DNA of 58,218 nucleotides, counting the filler, from Sphacelaria rigidula (taxonomy: Eukaryota): NCBI GenBank assembly GCA_964200075.2. It is 9 parts of 9 records of this genome, joined end to end, with 100 filler letters (N's around TTAATTAATTAA, not from the genome) between each part and the next. Parts side by side here need not be neighbours in the genome. Positions count along the whole stretch, not along the records: positions 45,361 to 51,739 come from CAXNAA020020440.1; 8 more parts are not named here. The stretch is one strand, 5' to 3'. The position numbers and the translations under genes were made by a program. Positions 4,010 to 57,470 of the stretch are shown here, one piece after another. The notes below the pieces were generated by a model. That model did not search any database. It had not been told where the DNA came from and worked only from the letters and a program-made list of their open reading frames with translations. Every line of letters begins with the position of its first letter. The stretch's first letter is position 1.

Positions 4010-4040
<31 letters not shown>

Positions 4041-4324
4041 GGGGGGTGGGGGGGGGGGTTCAAAACACAGGGGAAAAGAGACGAAATCGACGTCCATCAC
4101 ACGTTGAACTCCTTCGATTGCGAAGTTTTCGATTTTTGCGCGAGTACCTGTGTAATGAACACGGAAAGCAAAGAGAAAAAAGCTCGCAGAAAAGTGTGCA
4201 ATGATGGGACATTTCTTTGCAAATTTCGCAACCCACACGCGACCGATGCCGCGGCAGTCCCGCTCCCCCTCATCAGGGTGGCTAGTTTGAGGAGGCAAAA
4301 CGTAATGTGAAACAAAAGGACAGA

Positions 4325-12139: not shown

Positions 12140-12255
12140 GAACGAGTCTGTGGTCTCGAGGGATCAACCCATCTTTCCCCGGCACACGCCTTGCGTTTTG
12201 GTCTCGCGGGTTGGATCATGACCAGCACTCCCGCACCGCGTCAACTCTCGTCAAT
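12140..12255 (+). repeat. Dispersed SINE/LINE-tail-like repeat (GAGTCTGTGGTCTCGAGGGATCAACCCATCT...). Other copies at ~5600-5730 (-), ~9075-9170 (-) and ~24260-24360 (+)
   Basis: Four similar copies on three contigs. Confidence 0.75.
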
Positions 12256-12462
12256 CAAGCCCAGGGGAAGGGGGGGGCTCGATTTAACGAAAAAAGACGC
12301 ATGAGTGTATCAGACGACCCTAACACATTCGCAGTGCGCTTGCATTTGAGTGAAAACGGTATCAAGCGGTGTGAGCGAGTGTTATTAATCGGTAACAACC
12401 GCGTTCGAACAACTGTCGCTGCGTTCGTGGAAGAAATTGCCCCACATACGCCCCCCTTCCCC

Positions 12463-12861
12463 CCATCGTTGCTATCAGCCTGGTCCGGCGAGAACCCGTC
12501 GTGCTCCGTCCCAGCTTCGTAGGGGCGGACCCCCGATGGGGTTGCCGTCGGTTGGCGATGGCGCTATAAAACACGCCACTCACTGCGTAAGCTAGACAAC
12601 CAGCTTACCCTTTTTGCGCGCGCGCTTGCGTTTTTTTTGCGATAACCATGATGGTAGTCCAGCTAGATCATGTTGTGCGGCATGGGAGAACTCAAATCCG
12701 CACAATGGGGATGATCGTACTACGTAGTGTTTAAATGGTGAGACACCCATAAGACAGTGTATAAGACGTGGCTGTTTCTGGAAGTGGCGATGCCAGACAA
12801 TAAAGCAACTCATTGGAGGCTGTCATCCAAATGCAAGATGATCAGAAGGACTACCATCATG
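12463..12861 (+). mobile_element. C-run-targeting non-autonomous retroposon (Penelope-like architecture): upstream tail-less terminal repeat X plus body, cut by the contig end
   Basis: Follows CCCCCCTTCCCC. X (GCCTGGTCCGGCGAGAACCCGTCGTGCTCCGTCCC...) matches 50814-50868. The body aligns with 50401-50715. Confidence 0.7.
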
Positions 12862-18933: not shown

Positions 18934-21900
18934 CGTAAGAACTCAATCCTGTGACGTTCACCCCGCGTTGTTATTTGGACCTACGGGACACATTGCTTTC
19001 TGGTGGGGTGTGTTGGTACCACAAGCGATTGCTTGTCCTTCGCGAATGCCGCCGCAATGTTTCTAGTTCGCCTTGTTTCTATGGAGTGTTCTCTCATGCA
19101 ATACAACCACCGCCCTCTTGAGCACCCTGTCGTCCTCGCACCCGTCCGGTCTGTTTACGACTCATGCCTACGATCGGATGCAACCCACGGGTCAACAAGA
19201 AGGGCATGATTTCGTGATCCTTTCTTCGTGCGGCGTGATCTTGTGGTAACCTATGGATGCCTCTAGCTCGACGTCGAACATTTCGTTCATCATTTCTAAC
19301 GCGTCGAGCTGTACTCCCATTTCGCAGTCGGGCATGCAATGNNNNNNNNNNNNNNNNNNNNNNNNNNNNNNNNNNNNNNNNNNNNTTAATTAATTAANNN
19401 NNNNNNNNNNNNNNNNNNNNNNNNNNNNNNNNNNNNNNNNNCATTGACCACGCATCCCTTTCGAGACGGAGCACCGAACGGGGGGGGGGGGGAATCATGT
19501 ATTGGCCTTCCTCTTGTGTGATCCCGGCTGGTGCCCCCATATATACCGAAAGGTTAGGGTTAACCAGCGTCCACAATAGATGGGATGACAACACACACAC
19601 AACTGCGGGAGTATTCCTGTGTTTAACTTGGGTCAGAAGAATCTCGTCGACAAAGGTGGACACACAATGACCATGTCCGATTCAATGGCTGGCTATACCC
19701 TTTTTACGCCCGCGACCGATTATTCCGAAAATCCGGCATGACAGCCCTGCCAGGTTTCAGAGGATGACGTAGATGGTCACCAGTAGGCCGTATGGTGGCC
19801 GAAACAAATATCTTGGGAGTTTTGTATTACCCGCCCGATCAAGTCGCGGCAACCAATGTGACATGGTTGAGCAGGCAGGACCGATTTTGGGTATTTTCTT
19901 ACTTCCGTATCCAAAATGCGAAAGTCGACCAAGGTTTCCTCCTGTAGACCCACAAGCTCCCGCCTGGGCAGCAGGGGTTTCTCGGGCAGAAAAATTTCAC
20001 CGCTGTGGCTCCGTCTCTTGTGTGTAGTAGTGTCAGCTTGTGTTCGTCCAGCTCAGGTCGTGTGGTGGAAAAAAAACGATCGGAAGTCGAAATCGAAAAA
20101 ATGACAGCTATAATAAATTGGCTCGCTTTGCAAAACCGCAACCAAAACTCCTTCCGCTATCCCGGAAACTCGGCAAAAACCTACATATGCCCGATATCCC
20201 AAAGTTGAACACTTTTTTCGGAAACGCGGCGGGAAAAGCTTGAATGGCCGTCGGTGCACGTTTAAGAACGTTCCGAGATGAAACCGAGATACAAATCTGT
20301 GCTTAAGGTCTCGGTGCATGCAGCATCGCGCGCGTACGGGCACCCGCGATAAAAAGCACGCAAATTCAGTGATAGCCTGACTCTGCTACAATGCAATACA
20401 AGGTGCTTCGATCACGTGCTTCCGGTTCCTCATCGTGAGGGTATCAATGATCACGATATGTGCACAACAGAGTGATCCCGTGATGGCCCCTCCAAGAAAC
20501 GTGGGCGGTTTGAGCGGGCACAACCTCCTTGCAAACCAAAATGACAAAAATCGAGCGCACCGAGTAGTTGGAAGCTCTCATGCTTGGCATCGTTTTCGCC
20601 CATGTCGCCCATATTAGCGGCTTCGTAAAGTCTGAAACCAGCCATCAGGCACCGTATGGTCATTTCCTTTGTAACAGTTTTGGGGCTGGTTTGAGGGGGA
20701 GCGCTATCGCGGTATCACTCAACAGTTGTGTAAGCTTTCCCGCAGTTTGTACACCGTTCGTGCCCTACGCCTTTGCCAAAATAATCGTCACAACCTGATT
20801 TCTCGATATATCGAGGCCCAAATTCGTATACCGTACGTAGAATGTAGTTCGTCCGTCAACCACCTTTATGACGGTTGTGCAACTCTCTTGATCGCGATTC
20901 AAGTTCCCTTGGGTATACTGTAGTCGTCAGCTGTTGGTCGTTGTCGGCCAAAATTTCGCCCTCCTCTGTAGCATATTCGCTGCCGATGCCAGAACTCATC
21001 GCGGTGTCGAAGGCTAGAATCAAATTCGATCTCGATTTCGATTTCGAAGTCTTGACTTATAAAGGCGTGCCCTGCATTGTCTGGGGACGGGGGAGGGGAG
21101 GGGGTATGGCCCGCTATAAACTTCAGGCACAAATTCAAAACACGCACACCACACACCACCGAGATACGCCCTGACGCGCCGCTTACACCCCGCAGTATAC
21201 GCCATGGCGTCCAGCTGTTCAGCAATCGGTGTGTGTGTGTGTGTGTTGAACTCATCAATGTACCACTGATGACGAAATCACGGCTACTACACAAAAAATT
21301 CGACCTGATGGTCGACGAGGGAACGGGACTGCTGAACCCCTCTCGCGATAACAAATGAAGGCCAGCACCGCAGAAGGAAGACGGAGAACTAAAACAAATG
21401 AAAAATAAAAAGCTTCTGTGTTGACCTTCTTCCTGTGTGACCCCGGCTGGTGCGCCCACTTATACCGGAAGGTGTAGACCGACGTCCAGCATAAAAGGGA
21501 TGACAACACACACACAGTTCTGCTCGAAATCCCCTTGCCCTGAGAATTGCTGGCTACGACTTGTTCATCATTGTCGATGACTCGCAGCATATGCGTGGCA
21601 CAGCATATGCGTGGCAATATAGGAAGCACGTTGTTGAGGTTCTTGGACTTCCGTAATTCGCCCCCCCTGGACAACATGTATGAGGATCTTTTCCCACGAT
21701 CACCGGCTTGCTAGCTGTATGATCCTCACTGAGAGACTCCCTCTCTCTAACGCTATAGACGTGTGTGTTCCACATTACACGTACGAAGCTCAATACGACA
21801 ATTAGAGCACCGACAGAACGTCCGCGGCAGCCAGTCTTCCGCGGTGCGATCGTGTTCCCATCAACAAGTTGGATTGTCTCGGTCTGTTCACTACACCCTG

Positions 21901-25511: not shown

Positions 25512-25597
25512 GTGGGGAAACTTTTCTAGCTTCACTTGAATGATCTGTTGTTGTTGTTGTGGGTGGTGGTGTTTTTCCCTCTGTTTTGGACTAGGAG

Positions 25598-25821
25598 CAG
25601 TGCTCCGTCTCTAAAGGTATGGAGGTCAATGGTGAAACGAGTAAGGCAAGCAACAAATGAGTACCCCCCATGAGGCATTGAGAAACCCGTGGCTGTCTCT
25701 GGAAGTGGCAATACCAGAAAATCAAGCAACTCATTGTAGGCTGTGATCCAAATGCAAAATGATCAGTACGCTTCGGGCCGAACAATCTTAGTAGGATGCA
25801 GCGCACCCTTCGTGCGACGCG
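25598..25821 (+). mobile_element. Degenerate copy of the C-run retroposon: hairpin plus tail joined to a body fragment
   Basis: GTGCTCCGTC...GGAGG-TCAATGG...ATGAGTAC-CCCCC, followed by sequence aligning to 50610-50765 and 12747-12846. Confidence 0.7.
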
Positions 25822-29600: not shown

Positions 29601-30711
29601 CATCTTGCATGTTACAGGGTGCATGCTCCTCCTGGGAAGATACGGGGAAGATACTAAGATATCTGCGGTCAGGGGATCGAATTGGGGATGCCCGTCCTTC
29701 AGCCGTCAAGTGGTTGTATGAATCCGTCTTGGGGAGAAATATGTTTATCTCGTAAGCGCGACGACGGGGGGCTCTTGGCGTGTCACATTTTGAATTCGGG
29801 TGCAGCACACCTGCCTCGTGTTGAAGTTCAGCGCCATTATCAAGTGCACGGTGTGCCCTCGAGCCACGTGTTCACTGACTTCTGGGGACTAGCTACGAAG
29901 TGATAAATATAGCATACTTCGCAGTGCTTAGTTACGAGCTGGGTGTCTTGATGTTCTTCGATACTCGGTAATTACTGGTCACCGGACAACATCGACAAGG
30001 ATCATCACCCGCAACGAACAACATGCTAGCTCAGAGTTCGTTCCCAGTTCTCAGTGTCGCTGCAGAGCTCAACGCTTTCCTGACCTGCCTTGATATGTCC
30101 ATAGAGTCGACACGCGTCAAGGTGGTGGGGGGAGTCTTTCTTGTAGATAACGTGCCTGACGTTCCACGGGTTCCCGACTCCTGGTCTCATGAAACGACAA
30201 TCACGGGCATCATTGCCCACGACCAAATAGCTTGCTAGTGCCTGGCCCTCAAGACGAGACTCACTCTCCCTCTAGCTCTGCCAATCTACGTGTGTGTATG
30301 TGTGTGTCACATAGCATCGAAAGCTCAGACTCTGCAGCTAGAGCATCAACACGGCACCCACGCTAGCCGGGTCGTCGTCAGTCAGTACAGTACCCCAGCA
30401 CTTGAGGAAGCAGTCGCACATTCTTATATCGAACTACGGCATCCGTGTAGAACCGTGTCAAGATGGTTGAAACTGGCATTAGCTATTACAAGGAGGCGGT
30501 GTTCACTCGTCCTATGGCGTATCATGCGGGCTGAGCAGTGTACGTGAGACTTAATGTTGGTCGCCAGGAGGAGTTAGTCCTCTAATCATGAGATCGATTT
30601 TGCTTGTAGAGTTCGATGTCCAGGAATAACTGGTTTGAAAAATTGACTGCGGAGCGGGAGCTTGCCGCGTAGAGATCATTTGGAATAAATCCCACCCCCT
30701 TTCCCGCTCAT

Positions 30712-30801
30712 CCTCTGGTCTGGCGAAAACTCGTCGTGCTCTATCCCGGCGTCGTACGGATGCAAGGGCTTATGACGGTGGCTTGCACGTTCATGAGTAC
30801 A
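30712..30801 (+). mobile_element. 5'-truncated copy (X + tail) of the C-run retroposon
   Basis: CTGGTCTGGCGAAAACTCGTCGTGCTC...TTATGACGGTGGCTTGCACGTTCATGAGTACA followed by CCCC. A degenerate CCCC..TTCC..GCTCATC duplication lies on both flanks. Confidence 0.7.
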
Positions 30802-32257
30802 CCCCGTCTCTTCCTTATGCTCATCTCGATATCGCACACGCCTAAGCTTGATGTGAAATACATTCCGCACCTGCGAAGAAGGACAGGTGGAGAAGAGAGG
30901 AAAAATAATGGACGACCAACGAGAAGCTGATGCCTTAATTTTTATCATGATATACTGTGAATTTGAGTCGAAAAAAAAATTAAAAGTCTTTTTTTTTTCG
31001 GAGACTCACTCATTCTTGCACACGCTCAGACGGAACCACCGTCTTCGCATCCAACAACCAACATTCCACGTCACGTTGATATCGTCGCGTGTGTGCTGCT
31101 GCTCCATCTTGCCAACATTGCGAACGCTCAGGATCCATCGAAGAGTGCGATTGCATTTTCCAGCCTCCCTCCTCATCAGTCGTGGGACATAAAATTGTAT
31201 TCCGGTATTTTTTTTCCCTCTCGCGCACCCACACCCGCGTTTCATCGTGGCTACAGCGAGGATGCGCACAGAGGCCGCTTACAATGACGTAACAAAACGG
31301 ACGGCGAAGATTCCACGGTTAGGGCAAATCATCATGACTCAAAATCACCAAATTGACGATTTCTTCGGCCTGATTGCCCAAGAGGAAGAAAAAAGTTGAT
31401 CGCTGGTCCAAGGGGTATCCACGCAAATTTTGCGCCATTCCACGTGTCTGGGCTGCGTATACCTGAGTTGTAACGCTGAAATGAAGCTTACGGAGTGATG
31501 CGTCACGAGTCGACTCGTGATACTAGAACCAAGTAATTTCCAGATGAATCATCATCACCCTTGGAAAATTCCTCTCCCCACATGAAACCCCCTTGGTTCG
31601 CGGCATGATGAGAAACTACATCAGGGAACTGCGACTGCGTGAAAGGAATAACAGTCTAATACATTTGGATTCACACCACGGCAGAGATATCTCAGCGTCG
31701 AGGCTCTCGGCATATTTGACAGTGGATTACTCACTGTTGAACATGTCTGGATGGAACCTCGAGTTTGAGATACCTCTACTCGTGGTGTGGTCAAGATCTC
31801 ACGTGGTCAGAAGTTCAATCCGCTACAACAGTATACTGATAACCAAGTTTGCGCTTGAGTATCGCCCCCCTGACAGAGGGATGAGAAACCAAGAAGCTAA
31901 GCCTGGCTTCCGTCTGCTGTTCGAGTGGGAAACCGCACCGCACTTGTTCGAGGCGAGCAGACTTCATGTCGCTGGCCAGGACAGACAGAGAAAGGGATCA
32001 ACTATCTTGAGTTTAAGAGTGATCTCACGATGGGGAGGGGGGGGGAAGATCTGCGTCATCTCTTCTCGAAATTCCGCCTCAAATCGTCTTCGAAAGCAGC
32101 AAAAGTTGTTCGAACGCGCTTGTCACCGAGAAAAAACGCTTACTCATACTGCTTAACACCGTTTTCACCCAAACACAAGCAAACCGCCAGTACACGCTAG
32201 TGTCTTGGGTTGTCTGCCACATCTATGCACCCTTTTTTCCGTGGAATCACAACCCCC

Positions 32258-32290
<33 letters not shown>

Positions 32291-33929
32291 ACCCCCCCCA
32301 CNNNNNNNNNNNNNNNNNNNNNNNNNNNNNNNNNNNNNNNNNNNNTTAATTAATTAANNNNNNNNNNNNNNNNNNNNNNNNNNNNNNNNNNNNNNNNNNN
32401 NGGAAAAACCGAGCACAACGAGCAGCTGGGAATTCCCACGCTTGGGTTCGTTCTAGCCAATGTCGCCAATATGAGGCGCTTCATGCAGCCTGAACTCAAA
32501 CATCAGGCAGGCGCTGTATAGCCATTTTTCTCGTGGCACTTTTGGGCTGGTTTTGGCGGGGGGGGTATCGTAGAAAGTGTCATCATTTGCTCTCACTTGT
32601 TCATTCTTTCATCCCGGGTGTGCTTTTCTTTGCCTCCATCACTAGCGTGTGCTTACAGCTACTTGTCGATATCCTACTCAGGGATATCAAGGGCCTCAGT
32701 GGCAAGCTACTGCAGGAAGGATATTGGGCCTCGTAGAGGGACATTTCGGAACTGAAACGATTCACTCGCTACTAATTGACCGCTTTTCACGCTCAATTGT
32801 ATCCTCTACTCTCAGTCTCACGAATACATGCATTGTTATATATAAGATTTGACAACACCAGATAGATATATCTTATAGATAGCTAGAGCTATAGTAGTGA
32901 GCTCATTGGTGAAGATCCCATGTACTAATGGCAACTGAACAAGATGTTGTGGTCAATAGTTGCGATATTAAAAATTGTTACAGCGGAGAGTATAGACCTA
33001 TTGCAATTATCATTGTCCTATTGTCCATGGTGTGAATGATATTGAAAATCTGAAAAAGTGTGGTGATATTTCAGATTATTGAAACCAATGAACGTATGAT
33101 CTCCAGTCAAGCGTGGCATCAGTACACACAGTGGGGGTCGGAATGATGAACTCACTAATAGTTGTATGTATATGCAAATCTAGAAATCACAAAGTATCAC
33201 ATACATGCACAATATCGCGCAGGAATATCAGATTTTGTATACAATTGTATGGTTTCGAGTGTCAGATGGTATCAGTACAGAGGGGTTCGGGATAACGAGG
33301 TCACTGACAGTTGGACAGTTACATTTGATACATTTGGATGACTAATCATAACATGTATTCGCACTCTCAGCACTCTCCTAAATTAATGCGGAGTGTCTTC
33401 GAAAAGTGCACACAATGACGCCGTTCATCAACGCCCGATAGCAATAGAATCACCGCTTAACCCTGTGGTGGCTCGAAGATGCGCACCTGGCTGGGGCTGA
33501 AAGCCCTTTTTCAAGTGAACATCGTGGTGCCGGTTCAACGGCTGGACAAACCTCCCTGGACGATCAACGAGATGATAACCAGTTAGCACTATTAAAGTAC
33601 GTATGTATTATGTGTTTCTTTATGTAGTATATTTATGGGAAAATATGAATGATATCATTTTTTGCTGCGTGATGAACACTAACGTAACAGAGTTACTAGG
33701 TATCTTCGAGTGAGACGTAAGAAGTGTCGTCTGAGAGGCTGTACAACGAAGGTACTGCTCACCTAGCTTGCACATTGTCGCTGGTTTCCTCTGAGTGATT
33801 CCGCGATAGCACTCCGCCCAAACCAGCCCCCAAACTGTGACGAAGCAAATAGCCATCCAGCGCACGATAGCTGCTTTCAGACCGCATGGAGCGCCTCATG
33901 TGGGCAGAATTGGCGAAAACGATCCAATA

Positions 33930-35625: not shown

Positions 35626-35700
35626 GGGGGTATAGCTCAGGGGTAGAGTGTTCGCTTCGCATGCGAAATGTCTGGAATTCAAATCCCCATACCTCCACCA
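35626..35700 (+). tRNA. tRNA-Ala(CGC), probably a pseudogene (T-stem damaged), followed by genomic CCA
   Basis: Acceptor GGGGGTA/TACCTCC with the G3:U70 Ala identity pair, D-stem GCTC/GAGT, anticodon arm TTCGC-TTCGCAT-GCGAA. The T-stem TGGAA/CCCCA has two A-C mismatches including G53. CCA at 35698-35700, T-run just downstream. Confidence 0.85.
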
Positions 35701-36304: not shown

Positions 36305-36766
36305 GAAGGTATTAATATTGTAGAGGTTACTGGGCTCGGAGCAGGGATGCACATCGTGTCGTTTTCGAGATATTATTGGCAAGAGTTCACCGCGAGTCAG
36401 AAAGATCAAACTGACGACGCATTAAACACTGAGGCGGCTGAGTTTCGGCGTAGTTGCCTGAAAACCAAGTCGCACACCTTATCAACAGGGTAAACTGAGA
36501 AATATATGTTCATCGAGCGAGTTATCCAGGAATGTTGGATCACTCCTGTAGCCAATGGGGGTGATGAAAGAGACCTTCTCACTGCGTCCACTACGGTGTG
36601 TTTCGGCCAGCTGCAAGCTTGTTATTCATTTTTGAGGCCGAGACAGGCGAGTAGGAGAGGATGGAGTACAAGCACTTAAATGTATGCCACCCCTTGGATA
36701 CGAATGCATTTTACCTGCTAAAAGAAAGCACAGCAATAAGCCCCCCTCCCCCCCCCGATTACATTC

Positions 36767-36790
36767 ATGGCATGCATGATCATGAGTACA
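36767..36790 (+). mobile_element. 24-nt truncated solo tail of the C-run retroposon
   Basis: ATGGCATGCATGATCATGAGTACA flanked by a 17-nt duplication CCCCCCCGATTACATTC / CCCCCTCCATTACATTC. Confidence 0.8.
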
Positions 36791-38601
36791 CCCCCTCCAT
36801 TACATTCGACCATACGTGCAATAGGAGAGGCACACCAGGAGCGAGATAGACAGGTGATACTATCTAGCATCAACACACTGACCACAATATACCGGTCAAC
36901 GAGAAATTTTGGTTAGTGTGTTCATCAGTCGCAAGTGATTGTTTGATTGATCGCCGCACTTTGACTGACCCCCAGGGATCCAGCCGTGGTCACATCAGTC
37001 GCAAACTAAGATGAAGTTTAGTTCCAGTACAATATCTTGGGTATTATTACATTTACTTATGCAGCTTCATCAGGAACGCAGTAATAATTTGGGTGTAGTT
37101 GAGTGCAGATATTACCGAGAGACATGATGCAACAAACGGCCTCGTAGGTGAATTCCGAGGTGATGGATGAGTGACAGGGCGAACACTCACGGCCAGCAAC
37201 TCCAATACTCTCGAAAGCCTCCCGCAATTCTTGTATCTACTTTAGCGATGAAGAGACAACGTCTCATGGAGGGATATACTCTCAACATCTTTCAGCTGAT
37301 ATTGTCTGAGAGGCATTTCCGAGGTTCAGGCACATTTTTTTTTGTCTTTGCACAGGACTAGCAAACTCATCAACCACTACGGCACTACTTGCTCTGTTCC
37401 ATAAGCACCGTCTGTCTGGTATGGATACACGATCCCGTAAACTTGTCTCACGCGTTAGGCGAGAATGTTCTTCAAATATTCGTTGTTTATAGAGTATTTT
37501 TTTATTATTTTATTTTTCGCGCACTACCCTACGTGGTCGAACGGCCGGAAAGATCAGTCGGCCCGAAAACGGCCGTTCCTCGTGCCCATTCGGGGAAAAC
37601 GAAATATGAAAGAAGAACGTCAGAGAAAGTTGTTGACCGTCCGTAGCACCGCGGCCTTTGTTGGAGTAAGAAGCGAGGGTCGCTTACTTCGACGGTTGTG
37701 TGAGAGGTCGAGCTCCCTGGTGTCGTCCTTTTAAGCTCTACGGCTTTTTCATAGTTTTGTCGGGTACTCGGGGTCAACATCACCGTAAGTGCTCGGTGAG
37801 CGGACCTAGCTTATACCCCAATCTCACGAAACTATAGCTTCAATCAATTTTAATACACCTTTTTTGGGGTCTGTTTCGGTTTCCGAAGTGATAGCTATCA
37901 GCTGAGAAATCAAACAGACCAATGAATCTCGAAATCGTTTTCAGAAAAACGATCGTTGAACTTTTCAGCTTAGATGGTTGATGTGGGAACGGAGCCAGCT
38001 GTGTTCGACGGTAACCAAGAGAACATCAGGAAAAAAAATCCTTCAGAGTACACTGTAATTTGAATAATCTCGGAAAGATTCGAGGTCTTATCTGTTCCAC
38101 ATCGATAAGCCGCAAGTGTTCATAAACGAAATCGTGGGAACAATGAAAATTCAAATTTCTTGTGAAAGCTCCCCCTCAAAGAATCGGACCGACATATTGA
38201 AGCCCTTTTCGAATAAACTAGAAAGTGTCAAGGGTGAAGGCGTACGCCATGATAGTAACTGGGGACAAAATAGTGTCGGTCATACAGATACATTTTTACT
38301 TCTCCGTGAACACCTGAACGCACAAATTTCCTCCGAAGGCAAGCAATCATCTGTTTACCTGTATTCAATGCCGAAATCAGCAGACTCAACATGGTCAACG
38401 CGGTGACTTCTTTTCCAAAACGTCCTAACTCTCTATGATTGCATGACCACATGAATATGGCGATGGCAACGGCGGACACTGTAATGTGTACCAATCGAGG
38501 CCCCAAAAGACCACACCCTGGACAATATGTGGTCATCAGTTGCAATAGAAAAATATGATGCGTAAAGTATAGACCTATCGCAACTATTATCGAGCGACAG
38601 T

Positions 38602-38959: not shown

Positions 38960-39649
38960 GGTCCGGAGCAGGTTAAGTCCTTAGGCCATGTACTGTCGGC
39001 AGATGGCATCAAAGTGAGTGACGAAAAATTGAAAGCCATTCTCGACTTGCCGGAACCCACCTACATCGAAGAGTTGCGATCAGTACTCGTTCCAATAAAT
39101 GTCGTGCGGAAGTTCATACCAGACTTAGCTACAACCATCGTACCTCTGGTAGATCTGAGAAACAAAGAGGTGGCAAAACAAGTGTCAAAACTCTGGAATA
39201 CCGAACACGATGAAGCCTTCGAAAAAATCAAAACCATGTATGACCGAGGCACCCGCCTTTCATTTACTAGACTTCACGGAAGACTTCACGATAAATATCG
39301 ATGCGTCGGACCGAGGGGCTGGAGGTAACTTTTCGCAGAAGAAGGGCGGAGACGACGCAATCGTAGCATACTTCAGCCAACATTTCAATGACGCCTAAGC
39401 CCGCTGCTCACCCACCATGAAAGAGTGTTACGCGGTCGTACTGGCGATTAAGCGTCTCAGACAGTTTTTTTTGGGTCGTCACTTTACGTGTGTAACTGAT
39501 CATGCCGCTTTTCGAGATTTGTATGCAATGCAAGATAGAAGTAATATGCTGACCCGGTGGGCGATCGCATTGTAATCGTATGATCTCACGGTCAAACATT
39601 AGCCGGGGAAACTTCACGTCATTCCGGACACCCTCCCACAGCTCTTTAC
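38960..39649 (+). mobile_element. Degenerate Ty3/Gypsy pol: RT thumb/connection and RNase H
   Basis: LGHVLSADGI, ELRSVL, RKFIPDLA, DFTINIDASDRGAG, VAYFS, KECYAVVLAI, FTCVTDH and LTRWAIAL motifs, with stops and frameshifts. Confidence 0.92.
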
Positions 39650-41632
39650 TGTAGACTCTAGCCATCATTATCACCTCAGGTTAGGGGCATTTGTAGGTGT
39701 AGTTGTCTGATTGCCGGACTCTGTGATGGTGACCTCCATGACGAGTAGGCCGGTTTTGCTACTCTGATGGAGAGAGGCTATGGTCCTGTTCTCCTGTATT
39801 ATGCTGAGGGTTAATACATAAATAATTAAAGCTGCCGAAGTCCATGTGCCCGTGATGGGAGGAGTCCACATGGCAATCTGATCTTGAGTGACAGAAGTCT
39901 ACAATGAACGTTCATTAAGTCCGCTGACTAGCGGTAGGTCCGCTGAAAAGCAGCTGACACTTCAAAATAGGGAATTCTGCAGGTCTGATCAGTCTGCAGC
40001 AAACAAGACCAGCTCAAGGCGTGTTAACGTCGCTAGGAGTTGAAGAAGTAGAGCCGAGGAGGTTCTGAGGCAGTGCCGGGGTGGGCTGTGGTATCGCTCG
40101 TGCGAGAGGTGCGGGGGTTGACCGACAGCTGGCGAGCCCGCGCACGTTCCAGAAAAGCGGCGAAGTTACTACCCGGTGGAGCCAGCGAGAGTTGCTTGTT
40201 TCACGCTTGGCCAGGTACGGTCAAAAAGAGGAGTCCAAGGACTTCAAGACGTGGCGAGAACCGCGTGAGGAAGAGGCGTGTGTGGTCACCGTTGTAAGGT
40301 GGTACAGCGCGTCTCGGTATAAGGAGAGAGTTGTTGTTCCTGTGAGTGGGAGGCGACTTCGTTTTTCAAAAAGGCGTGTGGAGTGCTGTACTGCTGACCG
40401 AAGTGTACGAGGTGCAGGAGTATGTCGCGGTGGACGGCCATGTTGTTCGTGCACCGCAACAATATGTTGTCATCGATGGTCGCGCTGTTCGTGTACGATT
40501 TGTGGATATGCCCTACTACGGTCGCAAGTTCTCAAGTGAAAACTCTGCTCAGTTTCTGTGGAAGTATGAGGACCACCTTCGTGAGGTGCACGCAACGAAC
40601 GAGCGTCAAGCATGCTGGCACGTTGTTGAGGAGCCAGCGGTCTCTGACCTTATGCTCGCACATATCGAGAACTGTCTATGTGACACATTTTTGGATGGTG
40701 CGAATGATGTTGGGCAAGAGAAATTGCTCTTTGAGCTGCGCAAGCATGCATCTTATGCATCGCCGAGTGTGGTGCAAGATAGTGTGAAGGTCGGCGGCGG
40801 TGGAGATGGGCACGACATTTTGACAGGCAAGAAGGCGACACAACATAGGCCTGTCCGAGTACGCAGGCACGAAAGTGCTAGAAGCGTTGCCGCTATCGCC
40901 GTCAAGGAGCAAGCCAGACAGAAGGTGGAGGCTGTAGCGAGTATGGGTGATAGTGCTGCTGCTGCTGGCGATGTTGAGAGAGCGGGGCCTATATGGGCCA
41001 ATGAGCAAGTGCTGGTGGGCGGAGGTCCCAGTTGCTTGTTGCCGCCGGACCAGCGCGTAGCTGGAGATACGCCTTGCATGCTCGAAGCTGCGGGGGGTCT
41101 TATTCGCGAATGGCGAGCGAGCAGGGTCCCAGTTGCTTGTTGCCGCTGGACCAGCGCGTAGCTGGAGTTACGCCTTGCATGCTCGAAGCTTGCCGAGCTC
41201 ATGGTGAATCTATCTGCGCCAGTGACAGGGCGGGAGATCGTTCAGATGATTCGCAGGGGTGTCTGAGAATGCTATTCTTTGCGGAAAACGACAGTACTGT
41301 CAGGCACCAATGATGTCTGAGTTTGTCAAGCTCTGATGTAACTACTTGTTGGTAGTAGAGAGCTTTGGGGGTGCTGTAGACTCTAGCCATCATTATCACC
41401 TCAGGTTAGGGGCATTTGTAGGTGTAGTTGCGGGTCTGATTGCCGGACTCTGTGATGGTGACCTTCATGACCAGTAGGCCGGTTTTGCTACTCTGGTGGA
41501 GAGAGGCTATGATCCTGTTCTCCTGTATTATGCTGAGGGTTAATACATATAGAACTAAAGCTGCTGAAGTCCATGTGCCCGTGATGGGAGGAGTCCACAT
41601 GGCAATCTGATCTTGAGTGACAGAAGTCTACA
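39650..41632 (+). mobile_element. Complete gag-only non-autonomous LTR retroelement (TR-GAG-like, 1983 bp) nested in Gypsy pol
   Basis: LTRs at 39650-39903 and 41375-41632 (TGTAGACT...AGTCTACA; about 8 substitutions and one 4-nt indel by eye). TSD TTAC/TTGC, G-rich tract before the 3' LTR, no pol inside. Confidence 0.9.
40346..41161 (+). CDS. Gag-like ORF of the nested LTR element (true start uncertain, probably truncated)
   Basis: PYYGRKF...F...YED...V...N...L...HIENCLCD...DG aligns with the frame at 56231-56536, which lies upstream of a zinc knuckle. Confidence 0.6.
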   Translation: MGGDFVFQKGVWSAVLLTEVYEVQEYVAVDGHVVRAPQQYVVIDGRAVRVRFVDMPYYGRKFSSENSAQFLWKYEDHLREVHATNERQACWHVVEEPAVSDLMLAHIENCLCDTFLDGANDVGQEKLLFELRKHASYASPSVVQDSVKVGGGGDGHDILTGKKATQHRPVRVRRHESARSVAAIAVKEQARQKVEAVASMGDSAAAAGDVERAGPIWANEQVLVGGGPSCLLPPDQRVAGDTPCMLEAAGGLIREWRASRVPVACCRWTSA

Positions 41633-43220
41633 TTGCGTTTGAAAAGCGACAAAAAGCTGGAATCAAGCCCTTGCTTACACCAATATGCCGTAACGTACCA
41701 GAAGATCCCGCGTTACAAATAGCTGAACCACAACATCAGTAGCAGATATTAGCTGAAAAGCTCGACAATTGGAAGCCGGTGAAAAATGATCGAGAGCTGT
41801 TCACCATAAAATATGTACACGTGAGTGCAGCGAACGTCCTCACGTCAATCGATCGGGAAAAAAGCGAAAAGAGCAAGCAGTGGAGAACGGACCCTACATC
41901 CAATATATCACGGAAGAAGATGCTCCGATACCAGAACAAGAATCGATCACATCGATGTCATATTACTCACTACATGATGAGATCCTATTCGAATCATACT
42001 TGCGTGGGCACTTGCAAAAACGTGGTTCGTGACCAACCTTTGCTTCCCAAGACCCTTGTGGGCTTTGAGCTACATTCATACCACGACCATGCGCTGTCCG
42101 CAGGGCACTTAGGATTCAAGCGAAGCTACGACAAGATCCGGCGGAAGTATTATTGGCCATCAATGAACCGCAATATAAAGGATTGATACTTGGAATGTCA
42201 AAGCTGGCAACGCCGGAAGATGCCCCACCAGCAAAAATTGCCAATGGGACATGTTCCAGTAGAAAGGCCATATGAAAGAGTGTCGGCAGACCTTGTCGAA
42301 TACAAACCAGCTTCGATGTCAAACGCTGGAGTACTATGTAAATATGTGCTGTCCGTAATGGACCACCTCACAAGGTATGCTTTGCTCATCCCGGTACCGA
42401 ATAAACAAGCCACAGCAATAGCCAAAACTGTTCTTGATAAAGGTTTTACGACCTTTACATCCCAGAAAAACTGTGTACAGATCAGGGGGCGGAATTTGAG
42501 AAGAAGCTAATATACGCAATGCAACAGGAGCTGGGTTTTAATAAAACCCGCACGACACCGTTACGCCCGCAAGGTAATGCAGTGTCAGAACGAGTCCACT
42601 CCACTATACACGCGATGTTAGCTATGCGTACGTCAATTGGGAACAAAAGCTGGGCATCCATGCTTCCGTTTATCCGAATGGCGTACAGCACATTCTATCA
42701 CAGTACAGTGCAGGGGATGCCGTATTTTTTATTGTGCGGAAGACAGGCCAAATTACCAATCAACATCATCCTCGGCATACCTGAGGGAGAGCAAGCGGCA
42801 ACACCCGGAGAAGTTTCCAAAGAAACACGGGAAAAGCTACGTTAGGATTTGAAACTGCGGGACAAGGTCTACGAGAAAGAGCGAACGAGCAAGAAAATAA
42901 GAACAGATTAAAACCGCTCCCGGTGTTCAAACCCGGTCAAAAGATACTCCTGTACCGACCATACCAGGATTCAGAAGAGCCGACCCCGAAACTCCAAATA
43001 CCATGGAGAGGACCTTTCATGATAACCGAGAGGCGATCGCCGGTTGTGTACAGAATTAAAATAGGCGACGACTCTAAACAAATGCCAGCACACCTCGCTC
43101 ACTTGAAGGATTATCGTCCGTGAGAAACGCCACCCGCATCAGATTTCGATAAGTCGAGCGAGCTGTTCCTAGGCAAACGGATACCTCTACCAGAGAGAAA
43201 TCAGCCAGACGGAACGTTGC
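41633..43220 (+). mobile_element. Degenerate Ty3/Gypsy integrase (HHCC zinc finger, DDE core, GPF/Y module)
   Basis: HDHALSAGHLG..YYWPSM..CQSWQ, PYERVSADLV, VMDHLTRY, DQGAEF, TTPLRPQGNAVSERVH and PWRGPF. The RH-then-INT order is diagnostic of Gypsy. Confidence 0.93.
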
Positions 43221-48400: not shown

Positions 48401-48443
48401 CTGACAAGTCACGGACACGAACGACATATCGACTTCATCAGGG

Positions 48444-48484
48444 TGTACTCATGATCATGCATGCCATAGTCATAAGACCATTGA
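48444..48484 (-). mobile_element. 41-nt solo tail of the C-run retroposon (intronic)
   Basis: TCAATGGTCTTATGACTATGGCATGCATGATCATGAGTACA on the minus strand, flanked by a TCAGGG duplication (48438-48443, 48485-48490). Confidence 0.85.
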
Positions 48485-49437
48485 TCAGGGTGGGGGAAAA
48501 ACACAAACTACCTTGCGAGCTTGTCGGCGCGTCACCAAACGCGCGCACCAACAACCTCCACAACTTTCCCGGCACCTGATGACAAAGATGGATCATGATT
48601 ATCATACGGGAGGGATGTCGAACTTCTTACCCCCCATTCTCCCGCCCCCCTCACCGTTCCCACTCGGGAGGAGTTCGTACTTTCCAGCAAGCGAGTAACA
48701 TGCCCCGTCCCGGTAATCAACTTTCATTTCTTTGCCGGCGTTGGATCAGCATCTCCACACCCCGTCGACTTTGATCAAATTCCAGACAAAATACCACGAT
48801 CCGGAGTAGAGGTGTTTGCCAAAACATGTGATCATTTCTCAAGTCATTCGTCAGCTCGTCCCGGACCCTATCATACTTGTGCCAACTGGCGATGAAAACT
48901 ACGTACGGATTTCAACGTTACGCTCGTCAGATGGAAAACATGACAACATCTCCGTCAGTTGGCATCAGTGAAAGGGGTCATCGACATGAAGTTCGTGATT
49001 TTGGAACCATGATATCGAAATATGACATGATTTCCACCGCCAGTTGGGATCCATACGTAATGGGATCCGATACGAAGAACTAACTCGCTAACAAGGTGTA
49101 CCCGACAACTATTAATAGGTCCTTGGTGTATGATGACATATTTTCGCAAACACGCTCTTCGAACCCATCGAATGTGCCCGTACAGACGCACTACATCGAC
49201 CATCGGGGGCTTTTGACACAAGTGTCAAGCACGCAAATCATGATTCCCGCATTCCGTTTTGCACAAGACTTCGTCAGGAATTTACTGACATTCATGTGGC
49301 ACACCACCTGACCTAGGTGTACGAAATATGGACCCAAACTACAGCTGGCCGCAACAAACAACAAACCACAAGAGGATTTGATGGTGGCTGATTTTATCGG
49401 TACACAGAAAGGCAGGCCTTGATTATTCATCACTCAC

Positions 49438-49524: not shown

Positions 49525-50385
49525 CTGCAGTTTCGTCAGCAATCGCAACATGTGAAGAGAGAAGAAAAAAAAAGAGCACAACAATAAATACATATTCCTG
49601 AAAAAGCACGAGGAGGGATATCGCATCAGGCGAGAAGAGTAATTGCCCCTTCCTTGTCCAAGGAACATGCCTGCTCGTAAAAACGCGTCGCTTTCATTGG
49701 CTGCGGGTTTCACCACAAATGCATCGTCGGTGCAACTACTTATGCTGATCTCTCCCGAACAAAATGATATTTTTGGCTGCAACTTGTGTCATCAACGATA
49801 TGATGTTATATCTTTTTGCTTATTTATTCTTTTTAAATTCTTGTTTTTTCAGCGAGCGTGTCCGTTTGTTTCGATCTCGATTGCGTCTATTCATGTCTTG
49901 ACTGGACTGCTACGGAATGACTTCACATGCGACGATACATTAATTAGTAGTAACGTTGCAACTGGTCAGGCGTTGGAGCGCCTGCATGCTTCCCCTCCGT
50001 GCTCGGTGACAAAGCACACCGTATCGCGCAAACGTACGATTCCATACATCCCGTGTACTGAAAATTAAAGCAAATTTCATATTGGGACACGTGCGTCGCT
50101 CAAATTCCCTGGCCAGACCCTAAGCTCAACGGCATTTCTCAACCTTTGCCGCGTTCTAGATACTACTCTACGCTCATTTAGGACAACGCATCGCCTCGAC
50201 AAGGTCTTTCATCATACATGTCCTTTGCTCCGTCATTCTGACGCTGATGCGACGCTCGTCGGCACATTTCAAACACTTCTGAAACAAACAATAGTCCGTT
50301 CCATCATATTTCGGACCCATAGCATACATAAGTCGGAGCTGAAATACCGGAAATGACGAAGATACTGTGCTCACCCCCCATGCAT

Positions 50386-50909
50386 GCATCATGACTTCTT
50401 AGGGTTGGCGTCGGTTGGTAATGATGTTGTAAAACACGCCATGAACTGCGGAGGCTAGGCAACCACGTTGCCGTCTTTTCTTCTGCGCTTGCGTTTTTTT
50501 TTGCGGTAACCATGACGGCGGTCGAGTTAGATCACATTGTGCGGGGTGGAGAACCTGAACTCCGCGCGAAGGGAATGATCGTACCACTCAGTGTTCAAAT
50601 GGTGAGACACCCATGAGGCAGTGTGTATAGTAACCCATGGCTATCTGTGGGTTTGGCAATACCAGGAAATGAAACAACTCATTGGAGGCCGTCATCCAAA
50701 TGAAAGATCATCAGTACGCTTGGGGCCGAACAAACTTCGCAGGATCAGCTCACCCCTAATGCGACTACTCGCCGAACACGTCACGGCGCTTAGGGCTTGG
50801 TGATTGATTGCGAGCCTGGTCCGCCGAAAAACCGGCGTGCTTCGTCCCGGCTTTGCAGGGACGCGAGGTCAACGGTCACATGACTATGGCATGCAATTCA
50901 ACGAGTACA
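50386..50909 (+). mobile_element. Longest copy (524 nt) of the C-run retroposon: body + X + tail, inside a PMM/PGM intron
   Basis: Perfect 10-bp TSD CCCCATGCAT (50376-50385, 50910-50919). Ends ...GAGTACA. No credible ORF. Confidence 0.85.
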
Positions 50910-50975
50910 CCCCATGCATCTTTGAGATCGTGGCCAACACCGTTTTTCCCGCTTCTGAAAACGACTCAGGCACGA

Positions 50976-51016
50976 TGTACTCGTGATCTTGTATGCCGGA
51001 GTCAAAAGACCATTGA
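50976..51016 (-). mobile_element. Older 41-nt solo tail of the C-run retroposon
   Basis: TCAATGGTCTTTTGACTCCGGCATACAAGATCACGAGTACA on the minus strand. TSD not recognisable. Confidence 0.65.
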
Positions 51017-51084
51017 TGGGACATACGATCGACCACTGGATGCTATCAAAAATATATGTATCGATAGGCGCTGTTTTGACTCAC

Positions 51085-51246
51085 CTCGGCGAGATCCTTG
51101 ATAGCGTCTCCCAGTCCTGCATCCCGGCCTTGTCGCGCCATCTCAATGAGAACCTTCAAGGCCATGTAAACCCCGTCGTCCTGCATGTTGTTCTCCTTGA
51201 ACGCACCGTGTCCCGACGTCTCTATGGCCAGCTGGCAGTCTACACC
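51085..51246 (-). CDS. PMM/PGM-family exon (domain III sugar-binding loop): GVDCQLAIETSGHGAFKENNMQDDGVYMALKVLIEMARQGRDAGLGDAIKDLAE
   Basis: AIETSGHGAxKENxxxDDGxY motif. gttcgcag acceptor, gtgagt donor, 162 nt, phase 0. Confidence 0.93.
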
Positions 51247-51285
51247 CTGCGAACAAACGTATACCGTCGATTTCGGAGCAGGGGG

Positions 51286-51327
51286 TGTACTCATGATCAT
51301 GCGTGCCATAGTCATAAAGGCCATTGA
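51286..51327 (-). mobile_element. 42-nt solo tail of the C-run retroposon (intronic)
   Basis: TCAATGGCCTTTATGACTATGGCACGCATGATCATGAGTACA on the minus strand, flanked by a perfect 12-bp duplication CGGAGCAGGGGG (51274-51285, 51328-51339). Confidence 0.9.
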
Positions 51328-52217
51328 CGGAGCAGGGGGGTGGGGGGAGTTTCCGCCGCCGCACGCCCCCCCGCCACGTAGTCGAAGTCCACAGATCACT
51401 ACACCGAACGCATTGCGCGGGGGCGATACATAAGTACGACACAAAACATACTTCGTGTGGACACACACTCACGCACCGGTGACATGGAGGAATGCACGAC
51501 ACACAGCGAATTTTGGAACGAGCATGAGCACACGCGCGCACATGAAAACACAAATCAGGATGAACTGCGCACAGCAAATGCTGGCGATAGGACTGCAGGA
51601 CACTGGCCGGTAAGAGTAGCAGTAGATACACGCTGACATGATTGCAAGGGTCGGACAAATGATGAGTCGTCTGAAAATTACTTGGTTTTCGAATAATTGA
51701 TTCGAATCGTACGAATCCATCCCTAGGCTTTGTTTTCAGNNNNNNNNNNNNNNNNNNNNNNNNNNNNNNNNNNNNNNNNNNNNTTAATTAATTAANNNNN
51801 NNNNNNNNNNNNNNNNNNNNNNNNNNNNNNNNNNNNNNNAGTTCGCAAGTCGGGTTGCCCACTTGAGCCTCAATTCAGAGTTAAACCCCAATTCGCAGAA
51901 TTTGCTGTTATTTGTTCAATATTTTGTACTTGACAACATCAGGCCCTGCGGCAAGGTTTCTCCTTCGGTACGAGCAGAAGGACCAAGAAAAACGAAACGG
52001 CGAAATTACTCGGGAAGGTCTGCTTACAAAGTATCGAAACTCTTCAGAACAGAGACGCCGCATTCTCATGCGGCATTTGGACAACATGCAGACGCCTCCC
52101 GGACAAGACCCGGACGTGTTCATGACCAGCATTTACCAAATTCGTGACCAGCCTGTGTACATGGGTGAGTCTTTTTCTGATAAGCGCCTAACGGACATTG
52201 TAATCGAGGTGTTGGCT

Positions 52218-52416: not shown

Positions 52417-52795
52417 GACTGAAGACTACGATCAGATGAAGTACAATGCCGAGCGTGACCCCGACCGCAGCATTTCCGGTAGAGAAGTGACTGGGAGGAA
52501 CATGTACTCAAATCGTGTTCCACGCGGTATTGTGTCGAAAGGGGTGTGTGGTCGTGAGTCAGCCATGATAACGACATCGCCGCTTGAATCGTAAGCACCG
52601 TCTGCAAAACTCGATGGAAAATGTTATTCCTGTGGAAGACCAGGCCACCATATGCGTGACAGTCGTTTTGGAGGACAGTCAAACAACGGGAACAGGCCCG
52701 TAAAGTGGTGCGGTCTTCACCGCACCGATAAACATGACGATTTCGACAAGAACAACACCAACAACATCACCAACCTCAAGAACAACAATAACAAC

Positions 52796-52990
52796 TGCAA
52801 CGCGTGAGAGGACCGCATCGGAATTTGAACATCCCTATGGTTAGGGTTAGCGTTAGGGTTAGTGTTAGGGTTGTGGTCAGGGGCATGGTACCTCCAGGGG
52901 CTGACCCGATTGGTTTTGAAAAACGTCAACCCTGAGGTGTTTTGAATTACGGCGCGGTCCTCTAAGCACGCAATCCTCTCACGCATTACA
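52796..52990. mobile_element. Second copy (opposite orientation, ~195 bp) of the same MITE with a TTAGGG-type array at 52841-52882
   Basis: TGCAACGCGTGAGAGGACCGC...CCTCTCACGCATTACA; internal TTAGGG TTAGCG TTAGGG TTAGTG TTAGGG TTGTGG TCAGGG. Confidence 0.8.
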
Positions 52991-55688: not shown

Positions 55689-57470
55689 TGTAGAGAAAGT
55701 ACCGTAGCAACTCTAGCATGAGGAGTACAGTAGCAGGTGGATATCAGGTTGGATATTGTGACCATGGGTTGAAGGATGATTATTATATGCGTAACATATT
55801 GTGTTTGCAGGGAGGGCAAAACAGGGATCACTTCTGATTTTACCGAAGATAGCTGTTCGTATAAATGCTTGAGTCTTGAAGTCTCTGGAGCCCTTGACAA
55901 GGAGGAAGCCTCCGGAGCAGCACTATGACCTTGCTCTAGTTTCATACAAGTCTACAATAAACGTTCATTGAGGAAACTTGTCGGTTTCTGAATGAGGTTG
56001 GTTGGAAGTCGCACCGCACCCTACAGTCGGTAAAACCCAAGGACGCTCGCGTTGGATAACAGAGGGAGGGAAGTGGCGGAGAGAGAGGCGCAGGCCACAC
56101 AAATTCAAGGCGACTGTGGTGACAGGAGGCAGTTGAAAATATAGCATCGCGAAGGGGAGCTGGCACCAGCGAGGAGGTTGATGAGGTGAAGTTTGGTGTA
56201 ACCGAGTTGCCTCTGGGTGGATCGTTGAAAGTGCCCGAATATGGACGCTTGTTCATTGAACAGGCCTCCAGACGCTTTTATCAAATGTATCAAGACAACG
56301 AGGAGGCGGTGGCAAGGAGTAATAAAGGCCGGGCGGTTAAGTAAGCACTGTTGTCCATGCAAGAGTTGGTGCCCAAGCACATTCAGAATTGCGTGTCTGA
56401 CGCCATCATTGACGGGCTGGCACTCGCAGAAGACGAACTGCAGCAAGGGATTGCACGCCACCCGAAATGCTGGACCGATATGGAAATCGATCCTTCCGAA
56501 GCTGCAGCAGGCGTGAAAAAGGCGCTTGCCGCATGATATGAATCAACTGCAATGGGTCGAGTAGAAGGGCAATGGAGTTCATGACAAGAGTACTTTGCGG
56601 AAATTGCGGGTGCGGGGTACGTTTTCCTTGAAGCTGACCGTACGTTCAAGACTGGTCAAGCACACATCATTACCAGAGCTATCGCCGGCCTGACCCCACC
56701 TGAGTTCAAGAATAATGTTCAAAATACGCTCTATATGAAGGGGGGCTGGAAATAGAGCCCGAGACTGGCGTATAAGGTAGCTATTTTTGTGGCGATTACA
56801 TGGGAGACTGTGGAGGACGTTGACAAACAACGTCACCAGCGACCGCAACTTTGGCAAAAGAGCGGTTCACAAGGTTCGAAAAAACTGACATTGTAGGCCG
56901 CGGCAGCGGCTGCGGTCGCCGTAACGGGTATTGGCGGTTCTAGCTCGAAAAAGCCTCAAAGACCTGGTCCCAGCTACAAAGGCTGATTTGAGTGTGGCGA
57001 TAAGGGTCACTACAAGAAGGATTGTAAGAAACAGAGCACACGTGCGACCACGGTGAGTGCGTCAGGTGGGCAAGCGAAGTCGCCACCGCCGCCGCCGCAA
57101 CAGCGGCAGCAGCAACAGGGCAATGGGCAAAGGGGAGACAGTAAGAGTCCTGCTCCCACAACTGCTGTTTTCCCAGTGGATGGAACGCAAGGAGGTACTA
57201 ACAGTCCTGATAGCATGTTGCCGCTCCAGCCTTCTGCTCCAGCTCCTGCACTTCGCCTCCTACTGCCGGCGGGACGGGTTCAGGAGTGGACATCTCAGAC
57301 AGAGCCGGTATGGCGGAGCTTGCACACTGCTGAGGTTGCAGATTTACAGGTTGAAAGCGTGGTAGCTGACAGCAAGCAGCGATGCTGCCGGGCAGATTTA
57401 TCTGTCCCTGGTTCCGCAGCGAAGAATGTATGCCCTGTCACTGCAGCTTGAGAATAGGGGGATGGCATCA
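55689..57470 (+). mobile_element. LTR (55689-55956) plus degenerate gag with zinc knuckle; relative of the 39650-41632 element, 3' LTR not evident
   Basis: TGTAGA...TCTACA termini and the same post-LTR motif as at 39904. Gag frame VPEYGRLF...HIQNCVSD...DG; *FECGDKGHYKKDC (56984-57025) is a CX2CX4HX4C with the first Cys mutated to a stop. Confidence 0.75.

Follow-up and report, generated by a model that had tools for sequence, protein, structure and literature searches.

The locus at positions 50376 to 50919 raises two questions, namely, what kind of mobile element it contains and which machinery disperses this element through the genome of the brown alga Sphacelaria rigidula. The window, i.e., the whole stretch of DNA that was analyzed (58,218 nucleotides), comprises nine pieces of approximately 6.38 kb, separated by spacers of the form N44-TTAATTAATTAA-N44. 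Eight related segments had been described in a sequence-only reading of this DNA, all of which were recovered here by blastn and nhmmer, together with a ninth segment (19442-19479, minus strand). When positions 50340 to 50960 were used as a blastn query against the whole window, matches were obtained at 12539-12845 (78%, E 1e-63), 25667-25818 (80%), 30715-30805, 25605-25683, 48441-48484 (minus), 51278-51328 (minus), 50976-51016 (minus), and 36767-36800, and the block preceding the 3′ tail (block X) was additionally matched at 12477-12527 (82%, E 4e-8). A family profile run on the window with nhmmer returned 11 segments at E ≤ 0.009, with no further match up to E 10. The combined searches resolve 10 separable copies on five of the nine pieces, representing about 1.4 kb or about 2.5% of the window. 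A relic tail candidate at approximately 545-575 (minus) was not counted, as its score was weak and it lacked a C-run. The copies are as follows.

12465-12845, plus: copy with the family-typical 5′ structure (blastn, nhmmer, and bridging paralogous contigs)
19442-19479, minus: 5′-truncated copy with a variant X, cut by the piece start and absent from the sequence-only reading (nhmmer)
25589-25664, plus: variant X and tail, ending GAGTAC (blastn, nhmmer)
25670-25821, plus: 5′-truncated body copy, beginning at an internal CACCC of the body and cut by the piece end (blastn, nhmmer, and a loose end at 12735)
30712-30801, plus: X and tail, approximately 90 nt, flanked by C-rich sequence on the upstream side and by ACCCC on the downstream side (blastn, nhmmer)
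36767-36790, plus: 24-nt tail fragment (nhmmer)
48444-48484, minus: solo 41-nt tail insertion (blastn, nhmmer)
50386-50909, plus: fullest copy with both ends, 524 nt (blastn, nhmmer)
50976-51016, minus: older solo tail, 73% to 50869-50909, without a C-run or a recognizable target site duplication (blastn, nhmmer)
51286-51327, minus: solo 42-nt tail insertion (nhmmer)

The basic unit of the family is approximately 508 nt in length and consists of a body, a block X of approximately 65 nt, and a 41-nt tail ending in GAGTAC(A), and in the commonest full-length form (approximately 580 nt) an additional X, lacking the tail, precedes the body. Two copies are divided as listed below (all on the plus strand).

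50386-50401: tail-like 5′ fragment of copy 50386 (15/16-nt match to the tail)
50402-50799: body of copy 50386
50802-50868: leader plus block X of copy 50386
50869-50909: 41-nt tail of copy 50386, ending GAGTACA
12465-12529: leader and tail-less 5′ block X of copy 12465
12530-12538: junction of copy 12465, containing C5 (12530-12534)
12539-12845: body of copy 12465

The body start, GGGTTGG, is identical in position in both copies (50402 and 12539) and is, therefore, taken to mark where the basic unit begins on its 5′ side. The family homology of copy 12465 ends at approximately 12845, 16 nt short of the piece end, and its paralogs run on with family sequence (loose ends at 12839-12849).

Contigs from four public runs, three of DNA and a fourth (X6) whose kind is uncertain and which is RNA by guess only, were matched to positions 12250-12861 at a likeness of at least 80%. 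The three DNA runs yielded 44,155, 36,320, and 29,431 such contigs and the fourth yielded 2,605, while the summed word depth in run X1, which is not a copy number, was 67 to 182 in the unique flank (12250-12312) versus 0.36 to 10.6 million within the element, clear evidence of a very large family. One public run containing the locus carries the label “algae metagenome.” Pattern scans with the tail and a conserved body stretch, in exact and degenerate form, returned 0 and 0 matches in metagenome contigs and 0 in viral contigs.

These runs also define the status of the tail-less X upstream of the body, which the sequence-only reading had noted in the window and which is present at 12477-12529. 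Contigs of single-locus depth, each with 27 to 35 differences and 0 to 2 gaps, cross the X-to-body junction at 12530 (e.g., X1 records 1 and 2, X3 records 9 and 10, X5 records 17 to 21, and X6 records 25 and 26); X3 record 9, for example, spans 12478-12691, and X5 record 17 spans 12476-12638. Allowing for the recurrence of one locus in several runs, at least 8 to 10 separate paralogous loci share this junction, and the layout is therefore family-wide. The one-off nested insertion of X that had been considered earlier as a competing explanation is thus not what the paralogs display; the upstream, tail-less X is a property of the family or of a large subfamily, with a fixed junction. Loose ends located just before 12477 in 352, 307, and 261 contigs of the DNA runs show a C-run and then an 11-nt leader motif, the same motif that precedes the 3′ X (50802-50812), and many copies thus begin at the leader, directly after a C-rich flank. 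A further loose end, at 12524 (40 contigs of X6), passes into the 3′ part of X and then the tail and thereby marks the point at which the 3′ X diverges from the 5′ X, and the loose end at 12735 has C-runs before it and coincides with the breakpoint of copy 25670 at the internal CACCC.

Three partial-tandem layouts can be distinguished. The first, consisting of the 5′ X, the C5-containing junction, and the body, is that of 12465-12845 and its paralogs. The second, at 25589-25821, is a head-to-tail pair in which X and tail are joined by C5 (25665-25669) to a body truncated at the internal CACCC; its interpretation as a nested insertion within a full body copy was rejected because no body sequence precedes 25589. 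In the third, the first 16 nt of copy 50386 differ from the family junction, and this start, together with the last bases of the flanking duplication, matches the tail at 15 of 16 positions, a score reached by 16 of 36,842 overlapping 36-mers outside the family (about 5 loci). The upstream partial copy is, therefore, not uniformly tail-less, contrary to what had been supposed, and the three layouts together indicate that partial tandems recur. In an alternative which we consider improbable, the family depends on machinery of another kind; in one form of it, a composite founder, created by a single nested C-run insertion and later amplified, would render the 5′ X mechanistically meaningless. 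The 5′ X/body junction contains C5, just as a C-run is present in every 5′ flank of the family, and a body inserted at a C-run beside an older X would leave such a junction, but a founder of this kind does not by itself explain three different layouts.

The 3′ ends are uniform. All seven visible 3′ ends read GAGTAC(A), and six of them run directly into C3 to C6, the exception being the old copy at 50976, exactly as the sequence-only reading had it. Given a window background for CCC at offset 0 or +1 of p = 0.026, the probability of at least six such cases among seven is 2e-9, and CCC follows none of the window's other 33 GAGTAC sites (Fisher p 1.8e-6). Flanking target site duplications (TSDs) of variable length that start with C's, previously claimed for four copies, were confirmed, with lengths of 7 to 8, 10, 12, and approximately 17 nt.

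50376-50385 and 50910-50919, plus: TSD of copy 50386, 10/10 (sequence CCCCATGCAT, with two more C's before)
51328-51339 and 51274-51285, minus: TSD of copy 51286, 12/12
48485-48491 and 48437-48443, minus: TSD of copy 48444, 7 to 8 nt
36748-36766 and 36791-36807, plus: TSD of copy 36767, approximately 17 nt, imperfect (slippage inside the C-run)

Copy 30712 has an imperfect TSD only (7 to 8 nt), and copy 19442 has C13 upstream in element orientation (G13 at 19480-19492). In each TSD the C's make up the 5′ part, and the C-run is longer upstream than downstream, which places the first nick inside the homopolymer. Copies of 24 to 524 nt share a common 3′ end and show nested 5′ truncation. The three solo tails (48444-48484, 51286-51327, and 50976-51016) all start within 1 nt of one position, precisely where the likeness between the 5′ X and the 3′ X ends, which points to a preferred stop or a discrete substrate as opposed to random truncation.

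Such features are difficult to accommodate in an element that is not a retroposon, whether a DNA transposon, a Helitron, a TRIM/LTR derivative, or an assembly artifact, and we regard this explanation as highly improbable. The presence of a direct repeat (X) near both ends would be in keeping with it, but TSDs range in length from 7 to 17 nt, copies are truncated from the 5′ side to as little as 24 nt with the 3′ end always kept, inspection by eye shows no inverted-repeat relationship between the two ends of copy 50386, and the same junctions occur in independent runs. TRIM, MITE, and Helitron assignments were rejected on the basis of the variable TSDs and of 5′ truncation with a constant 3′ end. 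A TRIM/LTR derivative would possess a fixed 4- to 5-bp TSD, TG..CA repeats, and PBS/PPT motifs; here, the repeat starts with GATTG, and a 41-nt tail follows the 3′ repeat. The insertion signatures are those of target-primed reverse transcription (TPRT) at C/G homopolymers by machinery supplied in trans.

The family is devoid of coding capacity. In four family copies, each of the three sense frames is interrupted by stop codons, and no Pfam domain was detected on open reading frames (ORFs) overlapping family copies. Among the 457 stop-to-stop ORFs of at least 60 amino acids in the whole window, none matched a LINE or PLE (Penelope-like element) reverse transcriptase (RT), an APE endonuclease, or a GIY-YIG domain, in agreement with the earlier view that the mobilizing RT lies outside the window; the only retroelement matches were Gypsy-type RNase H/integrase at 39159-43120 and two zinc knuckles. 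A search of 50300-51400 against Rfam identified no family at E ≤ 10 (no hammerhead and no tRNA, 5S, or 7SL likeness), and no hammerhead reached the gathering score anywhere in the window, copy 12465-12861 being covered by the latter scan alone. The single tRNA of the window is located at 35626-35697, and the body contains a run of T8 to T9, which counts against transcription by polymerase III. A strict SINE definition demands a polymerase III head of tRNA, 5S, or 7SL origin with an internal promoter, and nothing of this kind was found by the Rfam search or the tRNA scan. The stops, the lack of Rfam matches, and the lack of an RT in the window indicate that the family is non-autonomous and not a classical polymerase III SINE. 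The core of the sequence-only reading, an abundant, non-coding, non-autonomous retroposon inserted by TPRT at C-runs, is consequently upheld by the copies, TSDs, 3′ ends, contig counts, and stops.

Several repeats of the window that are not related to the family likewise terminate at long C-runs; for example, the repeat at 32084-32258 is followed by C32, its relative at 12278-12434 (minus) is followed by C8, and two short repeat copies end before C8 to C10, at 6530 and 32558. Such ends suggest that (C)n-directed machinery operates generally in this genome. The ORF at 31548-32153, upstream of a C32-ended repeat, was rejected as LINE-like, having no Pfam match and a translation that resembles noncoding sequence.

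We propose the following sequence of events for insertion. An endonuclease encoded by the partner element would nick the G-rich strand within a C/G homopolymer run, and the freed ...GGG-3′OH would then prime reverse transcription at the 3′ tail of the RNA, possibly helped by terminal C's of the RNA, with the tail acting as the presumed recognition module. A second nick, 7 to 17 nt downstream, would generate TSDs that begin with the remainder of the C-run. Frequent early stops of the RT, particularly at the 5′ edge of the tail, would leave the 41-nt solo tails, and a jump of the RT to another template would yield partial head-to-tail tandems, which may alternatively arise through repeated hits on the C-run regenerated 5′ of each insertion.

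In stringent-type LINE/SINE pairs, the RT recognizes a 3′ stem-loop together with a short repeat at the terminus; in the L1/Alu system, poly(A) priming occurs on T-rich nicks. The proposed scheme resembles these systems in the conserved 3′ module common to a non-autonomous element and its partner and in that a nicked homopolymer pairing with the RNA 3′ end could aid priming. It differs from them in that the homopolymer is C/G, not A/T, and in that a tail hairpin is only weakly predicted. Fold z-scores of the tail were -1.5 to -1.7 in three stretches and -0.6 for the copy at 30700-30801, pairing over the seven tails amounted to 74.7% of cells versus 73.1% in shuffles (148 of 500 shuffles were at least as high), and a single compensatory pair was found; the modeled hairpin is, therefore, a guess unsupported by fold statistics or pair counts.

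Among the candidates for the partner which supplies this machinery, the likeliest is a LINE of the RTE-X type whose 3′ end is (C)n, like RTEX-1/2 of Ectocarpus, on which the RTEX-N1 element of that alga depends. We assign this reading a probability of roughly 0.55 and favor it over a PLE partner by analogy with published descriptions rather than by sequence match. A literature search for descriptions of RTE, RTE-X, or SINE elements in brown algae yielded only the Ectocarpus account (PMC12477816, Genome Biol 2025). According to that account, RTEX-1/2 are annotated as “(C)n 3′” with a “C-rich” TSD, and the non-autonomous RTEX-N1_Ec32 (604 to 607 bp), described as “5′ head unknown” and “can be present in tandem,” is 83% like RTEX-1/2 over its 3′ 60 bp and constitutes, with 3,812 plus 2,304 copies, the most abundant family of Ectocarpus; RTEX-N2_Ec32 (188 bp) has its 3′ 100 bp in common. 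The Sphacelaria family has both the C-rich TSD and the 3′ end at (C)n of an RTEX-N1-like element. Compared by description only, it further resembles RTEX-N1/N2 as a noncoding element of approximately 600 bp with a 5′ head of unknown origin in a brown-alga host, in its tandems and the (C)n ends of the partner LINEs, in a 3′ module common to families (60 to 100 bp there and approximately 105 nt here), in its frequent 5′ truncation, and in being the top-abundance family of its genome. It differs in its seemingly several-fold greater size (tens of thousands of contigs compared with approximately 6,100 copies) and in its tail-less 5′ X and 41-nt solo tails, which are not mentioned for RTEX-N1.

A less likely candidate for the partner, which we nevertheless hold to be a possible one, is a Chlamys-type PLE, whereby the 5′ X would represent a pseudo-LTR (pLTR) produced by partial tandem insertion, the 34- to 41-nt tail would correspond to the PLE “tail,” and a GIY-YIG/RT protein would target (C)n. 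The tail-less 5′ X found across the family, the recurrent partial tandems (25589-25821 and the tail-like fragment at 50386-50401), and the bias of the window copies toward (C)n targets are all compatible with it. Chlamys PLEs show pLTRs, a 30- to 40-bp tail, and (C)n/(CA)n targeting, mostly without a hammerhead (PMC8557442), and they are present in Ectocarpus (PMC12477816). Their non-autonomous derivatives (e.g., MRC1 of Chlamydomonas; Craig et al. 2021, PMC8557442) contain partial head-to-tail copies, which produce a direct repeat at the termini; they have a short tail at the terminus, insert at (C)n, are frequently truncated on the 5′ side, and usually have no hammerhead. In contrast to these derivatives, the present family has no PLE RT/GIY-YIG partner in the window, its repeat is only approximately 65 nt with fixed limits, its tail, found at each 3′ end, also inserts by itself, and its TSDs are clear, whereas those of Chlamys are often indiscernible (PMC8557442).

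Several observations weigh against a PLE partner. The limits of the 5′ X are fixed, with 0 to 2 gaps across paralogs, so that X appears to be inherited from a master copy and not rebuilt by a tandem event at each insertion, and in copy 50386 the body is preceded by a tail fragment instead of a tail-less X. Neither an inverted 5′ partner copy nor a hammerhead was seen in the window. In the curated Ectocarpus table, the Chlamys rows bear no note of a C-rich TSD or target, Chlamys-1 is entered as “(A)n 3′; no pLTR,” the C-rich phenotype is assigned to RTE-X, and the tandem trait is also recorded for RTEX-N1 (PMC12477816). The assignment of the family to PLEs in the sequence-only reading is, therefore, unsupported as stated, given the lack of a hammerhead, the tail fragment of copy 50386, and the RTE-X attribution of the C-rich phenotype in the Ectocarpus library. 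The more specific proposal that a Chlamys-type PLE mobilizes the family, with the 41-nt terminal module alone a sufficient substrate (as might be read from solo tails with TSDs and a discrete 5′ end) and with X a pLTR containing the transcription start, is more doubtful still; if true, no earlier PLE-dependent family of stramenopiles would have so high a copy number (about 10^4 or more), and the family would serve as a natural system in which integration directed at homopolymers could be followed. The remaining form of the alternative introduced above with the composite founder, a LINE of a different clade, is similarly improbable. An unclassified Ectocarpus family, unknown7-N1, is listed with C-rich termini and variable TSDs of 7 to 10 bp in the library (PMC12477816), which would leave room for other machinery, but positive evidence for another partner is lacking.

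An RTE-X-type partner thus remains the favored reading, and the outcome that the sequence-only reading named as refuting, a tail that belongs to an ordinary LINE, would accordingly be the likelier one. Under either partner the kind of element is already known, being a dependent of RTE-X with C-rich targeting or of a (C)n-targeting Chlamys element. What may be new is the Sphacelaria family as such, its magnitude, and its detailed anatomy, comprising the fixed tail-less 5′ X, the 41-nt solo tails, and the three tandem layouts. It is also evident that a “pseudo-LTR plus tail” architecture does not on its own distinguish PLE-dependent from LINE-dependent elements.

A single clear host exon lies close to the locus, as follows.

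51085-51246, minus: host exon with a PGM_PMM_III domain

Among named proteins, its product is closest to one from the brown alga Scytosiphon promiscuus (76% identity), with Tribonema minus next (59%). Together with the “algae metagenome” label, these matches make the probable brown-alga host of the sequence-only reading a reasonable one. Family copies sit in introns, three of them less than 1 kb from this phosphoglucomutase-family exon. Since the family occupies about 2.5% of the window and has an intronic location, studies of brown-alga annotation and of intron evolution must take it into account. The combination of integration at C/G homopolymers, clean TSDs, 41-nt solo insertions, and partial tandems makes the family a tractable natural case for the study of primer choice, stopping, and template jumping by an RT.

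A second repeat family, distinct from the C-run-targeting, non-coding main family, was represented by two members, which share 70% identity over 183 nt.

32084-32290 (+), second family, member 1, the range including the C32 run at 32259-32290
12264-12434 (-), second family, member 2, with a C8 run read as G8 at 12270-12277

The C32 and C8 runs adjoin the 3′ ends of their respective members. This family is, like the main family, multi-copy, because the depth of public-run contigs across 12313-12438 reached 6,000 to 39,000, versus approximately 100 in the unique flank.

Long C/G homopolymers also adjoin further short repeats or unique ends, and C or G runs of at least 7 nt numbered 26 in 57 kb, the longest being 32 nt.

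6526-6555 and 32551-32581, a 31-nt match (97%) which stops just before G8-G10
3900-3999 and 4035-4134, a tandem duplicate (100 nt, 83%) next to G20-G30
2455-2481, short repeat or unique end
16305-16316, short repeat or unique end

Decayed pieces of a Gypsy-type LTR retrotransposon lie at 39159-43120 (+), and two weak zinc-knuckle hits are possibly gag remnants of other retroelements.

39159-39395 (+), RT_RNaseH_2, Gypsy-type
41743-43120 (+), Integrase_H2C2, rve and integrase C-terminal SH3, Gypsy-type
52595-52804 (+), zf-CCHC, weak (E 3e-4)
56987-57448 (+), zf-CCHC, weak (E 2e-3)

Within the main family, the copy at 12465-12845 (+) is interrupted or deleted at 12846-12861; its family homology stops 16 nt short of the piece end, while hundreds of paralogous contigs carry on with family sequence where it breaks off. 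A weak tail-like stretch at approximately 545-575 (-), with a local score of 15 against the solo 41-nt tail at 48444-48484 (-) and no C-run, may represent a very old relic copy.

A tRNA gene and an exon of a protein-coding gene were also observed.

35626-35697 (+), tRNA gene (Rfam, 53.9 bits)
51085-51246 (-), exon of a phosphoglucomutase/phosphomannomutase-family gene (PGM_PMM_III)

The Rfam scan of the window at gathering score returned nothing besides this tRNA gene. The top named match of the PGM_PMM_III exon was from Scytosiphon promiscuus (76%), and the three main-family copies located within 1 kb of this exon presumably sit in its flanking introns.
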